A stretch of 64,000 bases of DNA from assembly GCF_963506605.1 (NCBI RefSeq), contig NC_083277.1, positions 18,476,001-18,540,000 on the forward strand, in the 5' to 3' direction. This document shows positions 2,312-49,282 of the stretch, in pieces (position 1 is the first letter of the stretch; the number at the start of each line of letters is the position of its first letter). Both the position numbers and the translations under genes were made by a program. This DNA is from Zootoca vivipara. Lineage: Eukaryota. Below the pieces are notes generated by a model that was given only the letters and a program-made list of their open reading frames with translations, was not told the DNA's origin and did no database searches.

Positions 2312-4131
2312 TTTTAAGCAGTGGTGTCCCGTCAGGGACTTTGGGGCAGGTGTCCAGAGCCACGCTCAGCAATATGAGAGGGTGAAGGTGGGACCAACTC
2401 CAGGAGGACTGCCTTGTCACATTTTGTGTAATTAGGCCCCCACCCCACTCCAGAGACACGATCCGGTTCACTTTTAAAGGCAAACCTACAAAATCTGCAC
2501 TTTCCAAAACAATATGCGAACTGAAACACTTCCATCCTTTTACATTTGCTCTTTCTGGATTTTGCAATGCACTTCTACAGACAAGTACTGTAATGTGTTT
2601 GGAAAAGCATACATTGCAGCAAAGGGTGCATATAGAAATGCATCTATTAGGGTAAAACATGCTAGCGGAAATTGCATACAAATATGTGTGCAGTAGGAAG
2701 AATTCACTTTAAAACCCTGGTGAATTTTCATGAGGACTTTTTAAAAAACTGGAAAGGTGGAGAACTGAACTTCAAACTGGCAAAATGAGAGAAACCGAAA
2801 TTGAGAGGCTCGCCCACCCTCAGTATGGAGTAGGGTTGTCCACAGGAAGAAAATCCCTTGCAGAAACATGGTGGCCAAACCATCCTCACGTTCCCTAGCA
2901 CATAGGGTCTAGCTATAGGTCTGCTGAGGGAGGGAGTGTCCATTGGACATGGTGGCTGGGGGTGGTGAGGACTGTACTGTAGTTCAAAACCTTTGGAGAG
3001 CAGCAAGTTGGGAAAGGCTGGCTTAACACCAGAAATGAGTTATGCCTTCTTGCTAAGCAGTCTTTTGTTGACCGGGTTGCCCATGATTGTGAAAGGAAGA
3101 GAGCTTCATGGTTGGGAAAGTGTTTGTTGACACTTAAGATACTCATCAGAGGCTGGAGGTGACATTCCTTCAGCTTCAAGGAGAGGCAGCTGTGACTTAT
3201 TCAGGTCTGATTGGGAGATTTAACCATTTGGTTTTCCTGCAATCCAGATCTAAGGGCCCTGTGCCTGCTATGTGCATCTCACGTGGTTTCTTCCATTTTT
3301 TTTCTACTGCCCCCCCCCCCCGGCCTGGAGCTTAGGGCAGTCTACAAGATGCTCCTCTTGTTATCTTCATGACATCCCTGTGAAGTAGCCAAAATGAGCA
3401 TCATGGCCAAGTAGGGATTTGAACCTGGGTCTCCCCAGTTGTGATGCAACAGTCTTACAGGGGCCAGCAAACTTTATCAGCAGGGAGCTGGTCCACTGTC
3501 CCTCAGACCTTGTGGAGGCCAGACTATATATTTTTTTGTGGGGGGGGAAATGAACGAGTTCCTATGCCCCACAAATAACCCAGAGATGCATTTTAAATAA
3601 AAGGGCACATTCTATTTCTGTAAAAACTCGCTGATTCCCGGACTGTCCGCAGGCCGGATTTAGAAGGCAATTGGGCCGGATCTGGCCCTGGGCCTTAGTT
3701 TGCCTACCCATGCACTACACCATACAGTCGTACCTTGGAAGTCGAAAGGAATCCGTTTCGGAAGTCTGTTTGACTTCCAAAACATTCAGAAACAAAAGTG
3801 CGGCTTCTAATTGGCTGCAGGAAGCTCCTGCAGCCAATCGGAAGCTGCGGAAGCCCCTGTGAATGTTTGACTTCCAAAAATAGTTCGCAAACCAGAACAG
3901 TCACTTCCGGGTTTGCGGCGGTCGGGAGCCAAAACGTTCGAGTCGCAAGGCATTCAACTTCTGAGGTAAAACATTCGAGAACTAAGCTGTTTGAAAACCA
4001 AGGTATGACTGTACTAGATTTCATCCTAACAGGCTGTAGCAGGCAACTGTCTTGCTTGTAAAGTTCTCGCTCCTGTCCTTCAACACCTTTGACCTTCCTA
4101 AAACGCCTCTGGTTTTGCTGCCTTGTTTTAG

Positions 4132-10860: not shown

Positions 10861-13014
10861 TATCCAGAAGCTGGAGGAAGTAGCAAGCTAAATCCTGTGA
10901 AGGAGAGACGTGCTTGATTTCTGCTCATATCCAAGGCTGTGTTTATAGGTGAAGCAAGACCCTTTTGGGGTGCTAATGCTGTGAACACCTCCATTGTGGG
11001 CTCAAGTTGTATATATTTGTAAATAAACCATATATCATAAAGTCCCTGCAGTCTCCGCTGTCCCTCATTCCAGAGGAAACACAAACCCTACATAAGCACC
11101 AATACCGGGAATCTAACCCCGCTCGGATATTGAGGTGGCCTGAAGCAATATTTATCACCGGGTGTACTTACTGCGTTTCATTTTTCTATTGACTGTACAC
11201 TCCCAACTGCCTATCTACCTGTTTGCCTACAACTCAGGATAACACTTCATGTAGTCTCTAGTCTGCAAAAGCTTCAACATACGATATACTAGACTTGCTA
11301 GGTTCCCCTGCATGCTACAGACAAGCTTTCGGAGTTACGGGTTTGTTGCTGTTGGTGTTTTGAACCGTATTTGCCACCCTGAGCTGCTTGGAGTAAGGGA
11401 GGGTGCTGTGAGGCCAGAAACCCAATAGGGAATGCAGTAAAAGCAGCGCCAGGACCTTGAGATTACGAGTCTCTGCTGCTTACATGGCGGTGCAAACCCT
11501 CCTGCTCTCGGCGGCTCAGATTTCCCCGAATACATAGGAAGACGAGCTGTTGCTCCTTCTCAAAGGCTTCTGCTGCCTCCGCTTGCGTGAGGCATCTCTG
11601 GCAAGGCAGCAGCATTGTGAGGCGAGCACCTGCTGCCATGGCAACCAACACCGCTGAAGCGACAGGGACGGCTTGGCCTGTGCCAGAGTAGAGCCTGTTT
11701 GGAAGACTTCACCGTCTGCTTGGGTGAGGCAAGAGACACAGGCCTCCCATGCCCTCCCAGAAGGCTGGACCCGAGACCTGTGCCCTTAACGTTGCCCTAG
11801 AGATCTCAGCCTTATTGGACCCAGGTAAAGATGGCGCAAGCAGGCCCAGCTAACTTGACCCCCTCTTCCCACCTCCATCATTCCCCGCCGTGGACCCAGG
11901 CCAGGCCACGAGGTGTGGCCTCTCCTATTGCTCCGTTTTCTAGGGGTATGTGGGGTATTCGCACTCATGGCACTGGGAACTGTCCTCATTAATACCCCCT
12001 TATTCCAGTATTCCTCTTTGCAGGCTGCAGGTAAGACTGGGCTTCCCCCAGCAGGGAAAGAGGCAACTTTGGGACACAAGGGTGAACTGGTTGGATTTTG
12101 GGTCTGATCCAGACATAGGCAAATTCCGGCCCTCCAGATGTTTGGGACTACAGTTCCCATCATCCCTGACCACTGGTCCTGTTAGCTAGGGATGATGGGA
12201 ATTGTAGTCCAAAACATCTGGAGGGCCGGAGTTTGCCTATGCCTGGTCTGATCCATCGAAATCCACAAAACTAGTTTATTGTATATTCTTGTCTGATAAA
12301 TCTGCAGTGTGTGTTGCAAGCTCTGGAATATTGTGGGATTATGTAGCGGTAAAAGTGTCGGCCTAGGACGGGCCTAGGCAAACTCGGCCCTGTTTGGAGA
12401 CTACAATTCCCATCATCCCTGACCAATGGTCCTGTTACCTAGGAATGATAGGAGTTGTAGTCCCAAAACATCTGGAGGGCCGAGTTTGCCTAGGCCTGGA
12501 CTAGGAGCTTGGAGGCCGGAGGTGCTTGCCCTGCTTGTGGGAGGCCCATTGAAATTAATGGATATTATTAACTCAGGTACATTAATTTCAATGCATCTGC
12601 TCTGAGCAGGTGGGGAGAACCCAAGAGATGGCCAGGTCAGAGGCAGTAATGCTTCTGAATACCAGTTGATGGAAATCACAAGAGGGCTCTTTTGCTCAAG
12701 TCCTGCTTAGAGGTTTCCCCACAGGCGTATGGTTGGTCACTATGAGAACAAGATGCCGGCCTAGCCTGATCCACCAGGCTCTTCTTATGGCCTTATGAAA
12801 GATCAGGGCTAATAGCAATGAGGACCCAAGCAATACCATTGCCTTATCGTTTAAATGTGTGGAGCACATGGCAGGCAGAGGCAGATGCTTAAAGGACCTT
12901 GGACCAGTTTAATGGAACACACAAGATTTTAGAGCTCATGTTGCCACCTGCCAAAATTAAAATTCCATCCCAAATGTTTAAATCAGATGTACAGTAGTTT
13001 CATAGTTTTAGTTA

Positions 13015-13414
13015 CAGGTAGGTAGCCGGGTTGTTCTGACGTAGTCGAAACAAAATAAAAAAATTCCTTCCAGCAGAACCTTAGACACCAACTACGTTTG
13101 TCATGGGTATGAGCTTTCGTGTGCATGCACACTTCTTCAGATCCCCAGACGCTTATATGTAGTCGTGTTGGTCTGACGTAGTCGAAACGAAAAAATAAAA
13201 TAAAAATAAAAAATTCCTTCCAGCAGCACCTTAGAGACCAACTAAGTTTGTCATAGGTATGAGCTTTTGTGTGCATGCACACTTCTTCAGATCCCCAGAC
13301 GCATATATATATCCGTGTTGGTCTGACGTAGTCGAAACAAAATAAGAAAATTCCTTCCAGCAGCAACTTAGAGACCAACTAAGTTTGTCATTGGTATGAG
13401 CTTTCGTGTGCATG
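13015..13414 (-). repeat. Head-to-tail array (about 2.7 units of 137-150 bp) of a Penelope-type terminal-repeat sequence carrying hammerhead motifs
   Basis: ctgacgtagtcgaaac recurs at 13036, 13173 and 13323. Each unit has GTATGAGCTTT(C/T)GTGTGCATG...; the third is cut off by a MITE at about 13415. Confidence 0.85.
13104..13147 (-). ncRNA. Minimal type I hammerhead ribozyme motif, intact core
   Basis: Minus strand: UGGGGAU-CUGAAGA-A-GUGUGCAUGCACAC-GAAA-GC-UC-AUACCCA. Stem I has 6 of 7 pairs, stem II is palindromic, stem III is reduced to the AGCU palindrome. Confidence 0.7.
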
Positions 13415-14397
13415 TTTTTTTTTGGGGGGGGGGATGCAGGGGTACGCATACCCCTAAACATTTTGTGAATCTTTTGTCCATTTACTGTATTTATTTTCCC
13501 CAATTTGAAGTATAAAATGGTGATTTTCTTGAGTCAAAATGAGAGTACCCCTAAACATTTTTTAAAGAAAAAAAACCCCCACTGGTTTTAGTTGTTTACT
13601 CCCCAACCTCAAACCCAAATTTTGCTCTGTCTCAGATTCGGGTTCTAAGAATTTGCGATTTCCATCTCAAAATGTAAATATTCCACAACCACACAAACAC
13701 AGAAAGACACACATACTTAGAAGAAGCTCAGTTCCAAATTAGCATTTGCAAATGCTAAAATTTGGGACCAGAATTGGCAGGGGGTCAGGGGAGGATTTCA
13801 CAATTTTAGAAACGTTGAACTCTTTTAATCTCCAGCTGACACCTGGGACCGAGCTGGTGTTAGGTGTTTAGGACGGTGTTTTATGGTTCATAGTGACATT
13901 TGTAGCACTGGGCACCACTGCATTTAGGGATGGGTGAATCTGTCAATTTCAGTTTCTCTCAGTTGCTCATTTTTCCAATCTCATGTCCAGTTCTCCACAT
14001 GTCCACATCACTTTGCAGTTTGTTTGTTTCAAAAAAGTTACTTGCAAATCAGTGTTCCCTAACATAGTTCATTTTTGTATGTTCTTTTCACGAACATATG
14101 CATTTTTGTGTATTAATTACCCAACCATATGCATTTTTGTACACATTACTTATCTGGACTAACGGAAAATTCAGAGAAGTTGTGAATCTTGAAGGATAGC
14201 TATGTTTAGGTTTGCATATTGTTTCCCAAAGTGCACATTGGCAGGTACACCATTAAAAGAGAACTGAGTAAACTTTCTCTCCCATCCCTAAGTGCATTTT
14301 AACAGGTGACTAGATCCATTTCCCCTCCCTCTCATCTCAGAACACAATGGCATTTTTCACAGCCCCCCTCTTCACTTCGGCCTCACCACTTGGTAGC

Positions 14398-14842: not shown

Positions 14843-14951
14843 TGTTATTCTCTAACCATGGTGGCATCCTGTCCCATGAAATTGCAGCAGGATTGCAGCG
14901 TGATTTTTCCTCCTCTTCCTTGGCAGCAGCAACAGCCGCTCCGCCGCAGCC

Positions 14952-15506
14952 ATGGGCCCCCCTGCCCACTTGGTCACAGGCCTGGTAGGAGCTGAGAAAT
15001 GGCACAGGGACACCCATGCCACAGTTCACGACACCTCCAAGCTGACGCAGCGCTGCGCAAAGGATGCCCTCGACCTTTGGTGTCCACTCCGAGCCCCAGG
15101 CCAGCCTGAGGAAACACCGTACGAGAAAAAGGTCAAGATCGACTCTTGGAAATTCAAGATAGATGTCCATCCAACTGGAGAGGTGACAAGCAAGCCACCG
15201 GAGGGGCCGGGGGTGACCCTGTGGAGGAGCAAAATCAAACCCCCTCCTTGGGTGTGCAAGATGGCCTTGCCCTGCTGCCGCGACTACGCCACCCTCAAGA
15301 ACAACGAGTATGTGGCCCAGTACGTCAGGGAGACGCGGCTGGTGGTGAGCCGCCTACGACAGGCTCTCCTGGAGATCAACGACCAGTTCAAGATGATGCT
15401 GCGTTTGAGATTACAAGTGGACGCCACGCTGGATCAAATCCGCCAGGGCCTCGTTACCAACAAGCAGAGCCAAGCCATTCGGGAGCACCGACCGGAAGTA
15501 GAGAAG
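14952..15506 (+). CDS. CCDC105: Coiled-coil domain-containing 105 / tektin-like 1, coding exon 1
   Basis: gccATGg start. KPPEGPGVTLWRSKIKPPPW and GLVTNKQS..IR.HRP..EK match human CCDC105 (TEKTL1) as I recall it. Donor AAG|gtgaga. The seven exons sum to 1437 nt (478 aa). Confidence 0.92.
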
Positions 15507-16361
15507 GTGAGACCTGCATCTCAACCCTACAGTCAACCCATCCTACCACTTACAAAACAACCAATGCTATCAGTGGCTACTCATCCTGATGGCCATGCTC
15601 TCCCTCCACTGTTGGAGGCGATATGCTTGCTTATGCATGTCACTTGCTGTTGTGCCCGGGTCCTCCTTGTTCGTTTCCTAGAGGCATCTGGTTGGGCGCT
15701 GTGAGAACAGGGTGCCTGGCTAGATGATCCTGCAGGTCCTTTTTACGTTCTTAGTCGACTCGCCCTGCACGTTCCCAACCACTAGATCTCAAACAGCAAG
15801 TGTGCTCTTGCATGACATTTATTGAGTACCTGAGCCTAAGTTTTTATTTCTTCTGAACACCTTGCGGGGCTCTCTGATTCACCTTGCGCTCCCACCCAAA
15901 GCATATAGTGCTTGCTTCACTGTACAGTACAGAACATACTGTACTGCAAAGCAGGCAACACACACACATATACACACACTAGGGCTGGGCGATATCTGGT
16001 TTTCAACACTGTGATATGTCACCAGCTAAACATTGCAATACAGTGGTACCTTGGTTTAAGTACTCAATTCGTTCCGGGGAGCCATTCGGTCCCTGAAAAG
16101 TACTTAAACCGAGTGCCATTTCTGTGTGTGTGTGTGGAGTGCTTCTGCGCATGCACGCGCCACGCAGATCGCTTCTGCGCATGCGCACGCCGTGGAACCC
16201 AGAAGTAAACACTTCCGGGTCTGCAGAGTACTTAAACCAAAAGTACTCAAACTGGAACATTCTCAAACCGAGATATGACTGTATACCAAAATATCATGAT
16301 GTTTGAAATAAGGATGGAGCACTGACTGGCTTCACAGTTTTCCCTGCATCATGGCTTTTGC

Positions 16362-25832: not shown

Positions 25833-27003
25833 TGACATATTGTGAGATGGGCTTTTGATCCTAGAGGCTAGAGGGAGAGGAGATGGATAAACGCCCACCA
25901 GAAAGAAATATCTGGTGTGACTTGAGGCCTAGCTATGCACATTGAAGATTAGTTGACTAAGAAATGTGTTTTAGTCATCTAAAGAGCAAGTGAATGTTCT
26001 TTCTACTCACTAGCAGTGTATTTTGGTAAGAATAGTTCAGTGTGTGTTGATTCAGAAGGCAAGCAATAGAAAAATCTAAGTTCCTTCCCAACTCATCAGA
26101 CACAAATTGTGTTGACTGCTGTGGCCCATTACACACTTCCCATAATTTTCAGTGTGATGCAAAGTACTGTGTTTCTCAGAATATGTTTGGGTATTGGTCG
26201 AGGTAAAGGTTTTTAATCCATTCCCTAAGGTCCAATGAGATACATGGATTGCTAAATATGTATGTTACAATCTTATTTTCCCACTTGACAGATTAAAAAC
26301 TATCAGATCAAATTGGTTCTGACTCACATCCACTTGAGAGTTCTTAAAGTACTCATAAATGAAATTGTGGGTTTCCTAATACATATAAGTGATTTGTTCC
26401 TAAAATCAATCTCCATTCTTGCAAGGTTTCCAGAACTACCATAGTACGACTTGGTTTGTGTTGGGTTTTTAGCAGGTGTTAAGCAGTTAGCATTTTCACA
26501 AGTGTTTTAATTGTATTATTAGACAGCTCTAGTGAAGGTTTCCACTACCAAGCCTTCTGGATATGTTGGGGTGAAAATTCAGCTCCCCCAAAGTACAGAA
26601 TTGCATAGGTTTGCATTTACTGGGCTATCCTGATTTGCTATGCATTTGTGTTTCCTATATTATTAGTAATACTCTTATATACTAAGAGCATTTATGTGAA
26701 TTAACTTTTGGGCAGGTCTCCCTTTCACTTGGGATGAAATTTGCAGGTTTTGTGGATGGGCTTACATGATTCTTCTCAGTTCCTTAAGTATATATTACCT
26801 TTGTTGTTTAGCCTTGTTTTTTTGTTTTTAGTTTGGAGGAATTGTTTCTCTCATTGGAAGGATTGTACCAGTGGTAACTGTAGAATAGTTCATAGACCAA
26901 TTTTATTGTCTAGGAAGATGGGAGGCCTTGTCACTAACTTCCTGTAAGTCAAATAAAAAAATTCCTTCAGTAGCACCTTAAAGACCAACAAAGTTTTTAT
27001 TTT

Positions 27004-27043
27004 GGTATGAGCTTTCGTGTGCATGCACACTTCTTCAGATACC
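27004..27043 (-). ncRNA. Minimal type I hammerhead ribozyme motif in an RPS5 intron (antisense to RPS5)
   Basis: Minus strand: GGUAU-CUGAAGA-A-GUGUGCAUGCACAC-GAAA-GC-UC-AUACC with a perfect 5-bp stem I. It sits in a ~100-bp insertion (26952-27050) with TSD ACTTCCTGTAAGTCA. Confidence 0.75.
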
Positions 27044-39001: not shown

Positions 39002-39062
39002 CACGAAAGCTCATACCAAGAACAAACTTAGTTGGTCTCTAAGGTGCTACTGGGCAATTTTA
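39002..39062 (+). mobile_element. 5'-truncated copy of the same repeat (hammerhead 3' half only)
   Basis: cacGAAAgcTCataccaagaacaaacttagttggtctctaaggtgctactgg; the CUGAAGA half is absent. Confidence 0.7.
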
Positions 39063-48672: not shown

Positions 48673-48800
48673 CAGGTAGGTAGCCGTGTTGGTCTGATGC
48701 TGTTGAAATAAATAATAAATAAGAAAATTAAAAAATTGTCCAGTAGCTCCTTAGAGGCCAACTAAGCTGGTTCTGGGTATAAGCTTTTGTGTGCATGCAG
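48673..48800 (-). mobile_element. Degenerate copy of the hammerhead-bearing Penelope-type repeat
   Basis: caggtaggtagccgtgttggtctg...ccagtagctccttagaggccaactaag...gtataagcttttgtgtgcatgca, similar to the 13015 units. Confidence 0.7.
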
Positions 48801-49282
48801 ACAATTTGGACAATTTGTAATTTATTTCTAATATGTCAGACAGAATGTCTGGGACCGTTTACACACTTTTATCTGCACCCACTGGGCTCCCACCACTGGT
48901 TTGGGAAGAGGCGTACCCATGAACATTAGACACAACCCATATCTGTCCTGTCGTTCTTCACAAAATGCTGTGCTTTGATGCACCCCCACAAACACAACCC
49001 CAGCGTTAATCCCAACTAAGAACGAGAATCGCTTAGCTGCGTTTTGAGCCCTGTGCTGACTTTTAATGTGGTTTGCCTGGTCCGTCCCCCCCGTCTGGAC
49101 ACCCTATCATGGTAGCTCCAGACACAGTGGTGCACCTCCCTTTTAATCTACCTCGGTGGTTCCTGTGCCAGTGTGGTTGTGCGGCCCCTTATCACCGGGG
49201 GTAAATATTTGGCCTCTCTCTCTCTCCTTTCTAGAAATGTCAACACGGGCACAACCCAAGTCTCTGGGGCGGCTGAGTGGAG

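Follow-up and report, generated by a model that had tools for sequence, protein, structure and literature searches.

A short hammerhead array in Zootoca vivipara, apparently derived from Penelope 5' ends, has a joint private to one locus

The 64,000-nt stretch of Zootoca vivipara DNA analysed here (the window) carries a tandem repeat at 13023-13414, for which TRF reports 2.8 copies. Its units start at 13023, 13160 and 13310. They run head to tail at spacings of 137 and 150 bp, in agreement with the first-pass annotation, and are read on the minus strand. Unit 1 (13023-13159, 137 bp, delimited by TRF and sequence) consists of the 5' UTR of a Penelope-like element (PLE), a hammerhead and a joint. 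An intact minimal hammerhead core with its stem II occupies 13111-13140, with the predicted cut between 13111 and 13110. Joint 1 (13143-13159) is the element's upstream TATA-region sequence lacking 16 nt, fused to the element's tail via GTAG. Unit 2 (13160-13309, 150 bp) has 13 additional bases in an A-rich tract. Its hammerhead (13290-13261) carries a G12 to A change at 13268, and joint 2 spans 13293-13309. Unit 3 (13310-13414, 105 bp) ends within the stem II palindrome; GAAA and the cut site are kept and CUGAAGA is missing. Ahead of the units lies a 14-nt lead-in (13009-13022, minus strand), present once and outside the repeat. This is the element's genomic 3' end, a start common to most of the 30 best copies, and in L225 and L237 it sits directly upstream of the ATG of the element's reading frame.

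The array adjoins a MITE at 13415-13584, whose ends are CAGTGCTTTTTT and AAAAAAGCACTG and whose left end lacks CAGTGC. The 8-bp target duplication of the MITE, GTTTTAGT, lies at 13005-13012 on the left, with an identical 8-mer at 13585-13592 on the right. The left 8-mer overlaps the Penelope end by four bases, TAGT, which close the one and open the other. The array looks intergenic. About 1.5 kb away, an open frame at 14904-15704 has a weak Tektin match (PF03148, E = 0.006, below the cut-off). On the other side are two copies of a hairpin repeat (12109-12246 and 12362-12505), likely another MITE family. Matches resembling mir-5408 at 12136-12219 and 12391-12470 were rejected; they score below the Rfam gathering threshold and fall in this hairpin repeat, which is unrelated to the array.

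The minus strand of unit 1 reads CUGAAGA-A-GUGUGCAUGCACAC-GAAA-GC-UC from 13140 to 13111, as had been proposed. It contains the features of PLE minimal hammerheads: CUGANGA, GAAA, UH, stems I and II, no true stem III and palindromic positions 15.2-16.2. Stem III is indeed confined to the palindrome AGCU, and the GAAA to AAAA change reported for unit 2 does fall at a CpG (plus strand 13268), removing G12. With unit 2 lacking G12 and unit 3 lacking the core, one of three units has a complete core in this assembly. The hammerhead pattern matches twice within the 64-kb window against 0.05 matches expected by chance, and 1 of 100 shuffles reached two; the other match, at 27009-27038, belongs to a solo copy. 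An Rfam scan returned no hammerhead match at E <= 10 for the minimal motif. The 66-nt fold of unit 1 is not unusually stable (z = -1.64; 11 of 200 shuffles folded equally well). The assignment to the Penelope type of minimal hammerhead, placed here by Penelope machinery, stands.

Unit 1 used as a query gave 990 candidates genome-wide, of which 40 were scored, and a 19-letter hammerhead word occurs without mismatch 24,316 times in the 1.44-Gb genome. Of the 30 best loci, most hold one copy of about 130 bp that ends sharply at a shared position; an inverted partner or a target duplication accompanies several of them. Among the first 100 matches listed for the 19-letter word, 60 stretches were picked by position on contig C1. 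These hold 72 matches; 38 reach the TATA region or beyond, and 34 stop earlier. In L237 the hammerhead core is at 3127 and an ATG at 3260, 133 nt after the core, opening a frame of 580+ codons with a reverse transcriptase domain (RVT_1, E = 5e-12). Upstream of the hammerhead in L091, a frame ends in GIY-YIG (PF01541, E = 1e-4) and contains the cysteine linker CNKPRCQLC (CX4CXXC). This linker fits the form CX2-5CXXC between reverse transcriptase and endonuclease that, in the available text of PMC8557442, marks the Neptune clade and is common to Nematis too. The motif thus has a pseudo-LTR (pLTR) position beside the reverse transcriptase (L237 and L225, RVT_1) and GIY-YIG (L091) coding sequence. 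Judged from sequence, the unit is the 5' UTR or pLTR of an abundant protein-coding PLE with a Neptune-type linker, because longer copies end in the GIY-YIG frame and the other side leads into the ATG of the reverse transcriptase frame.

Long open frames of the element (521+ codons) at four loci (L225, L228, L234 and L237) are nearly identical, and a young subfamily may therefore still be active. In many short copies, such as L056, L065 and L073, the sequence breaks off where the hammerhead begins on its 5' side, some 25-30 nt downstream from a TATA box, and an extra C is frequent. At this edge, TACC comes next in 63 of 287 matches, in a set enriched for tandems. Such stops would be consistent with run-off on a capped transcript beginning at GUAUCUG.

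What stands between the units is CCCCAGACGCTTATATG, the element's own upstream TATA-region sequence with a 16-nt gap. Since the spacer is element sequence, a novel or target-derived origin is ruled out. The hammerhead edge combined with the spacer word has 364 matches in the genome. In the first 100 of these as listed, 15-16 bases separate edge and word in 98, and the only two with no separation are those of the array. Across the 1.44-Gb genome, the gapless joint is matched just twice, whether 0 or up to 2 mismatches are allowed, and both matches are in the array. No lineage or source copy sharing the 16-nt gap was found genome-wide by exact-word searches, which undercount old copies. The parent runs on as ...TATATGTAG and the tail reads ...GGTAGCCG. 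Both carry GTAG, so the fusion uses this tetranucleotide.

These results bear on the first-pass annotation, which had proposed a non-coding, array-forming element copied from multimeric or circular RNA. The form it described, a non-coding head-to-tail repeat with type I hammerheads, is present. A retrozyme would be expected to disperse one monomer over many loci, and the joint occurs twice in the genome, both times here. Two outcomes that the annotation had itself set against its reading are largely what we see: the unit-to-unit joint is private to this locus, and the family copies are ends of a protein-coding Penelope element. The proposal of such an element is thus not borne out. In addition, the 14-nt lead-in lies outside the repeat and would be missing from any copy made on a circular monomer.

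The relation of the array to the MITE had also been read differently, with unit 3 cut by the MITE. The missing part of unit 3 was not found beyond the MITE, and such a cut is ruled out by the 8-bp duplication, which encloses array and MITE together. Because of this enclosure, the array is placed as having landed in the MITE's left end. The MITE family has at least 1,903 candidates in the genome, its copies have the same two ends as the one here, and copy L216 is flanked by an exact 8-bp duplication. Beside the array, the left inverted repeat has lost CAGTGC, that is, six target bases. A target duplication such as can surround a retrozyme insertion is absent, the flanking 8-mer being the MITE's and six target bases having been lost. 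Contigs of two other species (B and C) stop aligning exactly at 13012 and resume at the MITE's CACTG (13580); the unaligned letters left beyond 13012 number 57 and 10 and are known by length alone. Two runs of the same species (organism A, two studies) continue from the flank into the array. Since the duplication encloses both elements and the other-species contigs leave at 13012, the array is younger than the MITE. It is likely restricted to this species' lineage.

Divergence among the units was scored against the majority of 43 family copies, which were picked by exact patterns and not chosen for likeness to unit 1. At the sites counted, the units carry 9 changes, none of them common to the units. 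Because no derived change is common to them, the repeat appears to have been made at or soon after insertion. The units have 7 transversions and 2 transitions, against 19 and 63 in the 43 family copies (Fisher p = 0.002, post hoc). Decayed CpG bases number 1 of 24 in the units and 32 of 179 in the family (p = 0.055). The transversion excess is not ordinary decay; error-prone copying at formation would fit it. One subfamily-marking site, excluded from the count of changes, reads G, A and T in units 1 to 3, and among the first 100 genome copies listed it reads T in 67 and A in 33. The A of unit 2 is the other subfamily's letter. Under plain duplication only chance mutation or conversion would fit. 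In one contig of another individual, joint 2 reads G at 13309, as joint 1 does.

Tandem copies exist elsewhere, and head-to-tail pairs make up <1% of family copies. Pairs of a 15-mer gave 63, 18 and 63 matches for periods of 55-124, 125-155 and 156-215, a total of 144, with overlapping matches counted separately and old arrays undercounted by the exact words. Many of the longer-period pairs join a short piece of 90-130 bp to a longer one containing the first codons, and their joints vary. At seven other loci a single joint is present two to four times; the joints are private to each locus and the periods unrelated: L068 (54 bp), L038 (66 bp), L236 (90 bp), L235 (91 bp), L067 (103 bp), L238 (113 bp) and L230 (219 bp). 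The first unit starts outside the repeat in 6 of these 7, as it does in the array at 13023-13414. In L235 the unit types alternate (2 like 4, 3 like 5), which points to a later block duplication of DNA. L236 repeats a filler joint three times, and the joints of L068 differ by one C. L230 (G000:C13:30059124-30062151) holds, at 1122-2030, four near-identical 219-bp units made from three element pieces and has no hammerhead core. It starts at the usual element end, inside its repeat, and is the best candidate in this genome for a circular template without a ribozyme. With private joints, unrelated periods and the coreless L230, these arrays arise sporadically, need no ribozyme and have no monomer in common. 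Three further loci (L042, L051 and L066) are mixed-subfamily composites.

Other repeats of the family were also seen. In L067 (G000:C3:120024166-120027386), four units have identical joints and one carries another subfamily's diagnostic letter. L170 (G000:C1:2776800-2780600) has four hammerhead words at 598-bp spacing in a partial-tandem Penelope insertion. In L181 (G000:C3:81096184-81099262), a 32-bp unit present twice begins at the hammerhead's 5' edge and ends precisely at the predicted cut; it could be a copied 5' cleavage product or chance AT microhomology. This is the one exact start at the cut site among 21 short re-entries at other loci. None of 55 position-picked copies starts at or near the cut site.

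Adjacent units had been suggested to supply each other's dimer partner. In the known dimer geometry, the intact unit 1 core would cut the unit 2 site and the dead unit 2 core would face the unit 1 site. Each double-hammerhead fold would then give one cut because only the unit 1 core is intact. With one complete core in three, the array as it stands could free no monomer as a double hammerhead unless it refolded. Forcing the double-hammerhead fold costs 19.7 and 17.9 kcal/mol relative to the minimum-energy fold. In seven parent copies folded with 45 nt of upstream sequence (an eighth, with a changed core, was left out), the mean pairing probability of the core was 0.65, 0.87, 0.38, 0.97, 0.77, 0.85 and 0.99. 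With 2 nt upstream, the same copies gave 0.41, 0.23, 0.60, 0.85, 0.58, 0.22 and 0.85. Units 1 and 2 of the array gave 0.27 and 0.60. In parent copies, the 16 nt that the array lacks form the strand with which the core is predicted to pair, with an uneven effect, and the new spacer can lengthen stem I in the predicted fold. This suggests a switch in which the upstream strand would mask the core in read-through RNA.

In three RNA runs (about 6% of each; tissue unknown, small RNAs and circles likely lost), family reads came from other loci and essentially none lay on the unique flank or the joint. Nor did read ends pile up at the cut site in these same runs (about 6% of each), whose libraries are unsuited to small circles. 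Where RNA reads have loose ends at 13142, these go on into the 16 nt of the parent; such reads thus come from other family copies.

Several hammerhead-bearing systems invite comparison, each as described in the available portions of its source. Minimal hammerheads are carried by the pLTRs of metazoan PLEs, including Neptune of fish, with turtle and snakes also among the reported hosts (Cervera and de la Pena 2014, PMC4209133). The array shares with them the core, the extra base before stem II, the G10.1-C11.1 pair, the palindromic 15.2-16.2 and a short stem I. The Penelope family here shares the pLTR location and the mostly single, scattered motifs from truncated elements. That work found low dimer activity and hypothesised a circular-RNA route to tandems; our locus differs in being a short local array, for which this route is not supported. 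Metazoan non-LTR retrozymes of coral, mussel and axolotl (Cervera and de la Pena 2020, PMC7229834) are likewise non-coding head-to-tail units of low GC with one type I hammerhead. Theirs alone are canonical hammerheads in 170-400-nt monomers, with hundreds to many thousands of motifs in tandem repeats. They give abundant linear and circular RNA, whereas the array is known from DNA.

Tandem hammerhead repeats in reptiles have already been reported, as vertebrate "non-LTR retrozymes" from PLE pLTRs (Li, Clavereau, Pollet 2026, bioRxiv 10.64898/2026.07.22.740005). In the accessible part of this preprint, they resemble the array as short tandems of minimal or canonical type I hammerheads, homologous to pLTRs and present in 4 of 5 reptile genomes. 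Their mean length is 176 bp, most have at most 7 units, 1 of 9 tested dimers cleaved, and local amplification of a PLE terminus is allowed for. The array differs from the preprint's "active" class, defined by two consecutive complete motifs, in having one complete core of three. It also differs from a retrozyme family in that its monomer joint is found at a single locus. The supplementary species tables of the preprint may list the Penelope family of the array. In Poseidon of Anolis carolinensis, internal reverse-transcription start sites downstream of the hammerhead fix the genomic ends, and the template is mainly uncut RNA (Frangieh et al. 2024, PMC11167929, as far as its available text goes). 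The element here would resemble it in internal starts and an uncut template. The Poseidon frame starts inside the hammerhead, whereas the element here has its ATG 133 nt after the core, its reverse-transcription starts in the 5' UTR and the Neptune-type linker. Partial tandems and inverted copies are described as standard PLE anatomy in the accessible part of PMC8557442. A literature search covering few subscription journals returned no paper on this lizard Penelope family or on microhomology looping in PLE insertions.

A short hammerhead tandem need not be a retrozyme, since arrays in this genome arise sporadically from Penelope ends with their own joints, once without a ribozyme. This is a caution for pipelines that call every hammerhead tandem an active retrozyme. 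A simple test for a tandem is to ask whether its joint is common to several loci and whether the insertion starts inside the monomer. By-product arrays also map where the element's reverse transcriptase starts and stops.

That the array is not a dispersed retrozyme family we hold with high confidence. The array represents the 5' UTR end of a Penelope element with its hammerhead, and we think it probable that one truncated insertion was re-copied at the DNA level via GTAG microhomology. Beyond the observed unit identity, parent reading frame, private joint and enclosing MITE duplication, we infer the following steps. With uncut RNA as template, the element's protein would have started cDNA synthesis at the left edge of the MITE, where the TAGT agrees with the terminus of the element. 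Copying would have passed through the hammerhead, skipped 16 nt and gone 17-20 nt into the TATA region. The new strand would then have slipped from the TATA-region GTAG back to the tail GTAG, and the last ~137 bp would have been re-copied. A second slip, or unequal exchange between 105-bp repeats, would have copied the joint again at or soon after insertion. Synthesis would have ended in the stem II palindrome and been joined to the MITE with the loss of six target bases. The hammerhead would be a passenger, and unit 2 would have lost G12 afterwards. Against re-copying of one insertion as DNA stand the G, A and T at the subfamily site, the 7:2 transversion excess, the start of L230 inside its repeat, as a circle would give, and the L068 joints one C apart, a better fit to repeated enzyme jumps.

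Those jumps are at the heart of an account we regard as rather unlikely, in which the Penelope reverse transcriptase looped on one linear read-through RNA, realigning twice at GTAG in the manner of telomerase within one insertion. The template would already have lacked the 16 nt, or they would have been skipped at each pass. A lead-in outside the repeat suits a linear template, the units have no derived changes in common, the transversion excess could be enzyme error at each pass, and PLE reverse transcriptases are related to telomerase and start internally (PMC11167929, available text). However, no source copy with the 16-nt gap was found, and an identical skip twice is unlikely without one; moreover, L236 repeats a filler that element RNA should not contain, and L235 shows duplication of a two-unit block. 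The mixture at the subfamily site would instead be natural if the array had been assembled from different element RNAs, or if another copy had later patched one of the units. Composites L042, L051 and L066 and the odd unit of L067 amid identical joints give this serial insertion or conversion some precedent, yet both joints have the same unique 16-nt gap and fusion point, and the G at 13309 makes joint 2 like joint 1 in one other individual (one contig). We consider it highly improbable. Also very unlikely is a retrozyme-like origin, in which circles or multimers of RNA made by the hammerhead were the template and neighbouring units acted as dimer partners. Tandem minimal hammerheads are present, dimers and trimers of such motifs cut weakly in vitro (PMC4209133, available text), and the loss of the core-pairing 16 nt and the longer stem I would favour it. 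This reading has to face the private joint, the lead-in absent from the monomer, the single complete core, a forced fold 18-20 kcal/mol above the minimum, the hammerhead-free L230 and the 0 of 55 copies starting at or near the cut site. The lack of joint or flank reads in the three RNA runs (about 6% of each) weighs weakly, with tissue unknown and small RNAs likely lost. A distinctly doubtful further idea is that of a retrozyme at birth: the parent's upstream 16 nt would silence the core in read-through RNA, and the array lacks that strand and has a longer stem I, so that at its founding the trimer would have processed itself, yet it never spread. If so, many short reptile "retrozymes" would be Penelope integration by-products, the raw material for selected true retrozymes.

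The element recurs elsewhere in the window. A solo copy at 26951-27043 has an intact hammerhead and a 15-bp target duplication (ACTTCCTGTAAGTCA), and lies within an intron of a gene whose exons we take to be those of ribosomal protein S5. Further fragments of the element are at 39002-39061 and 48721-48802.
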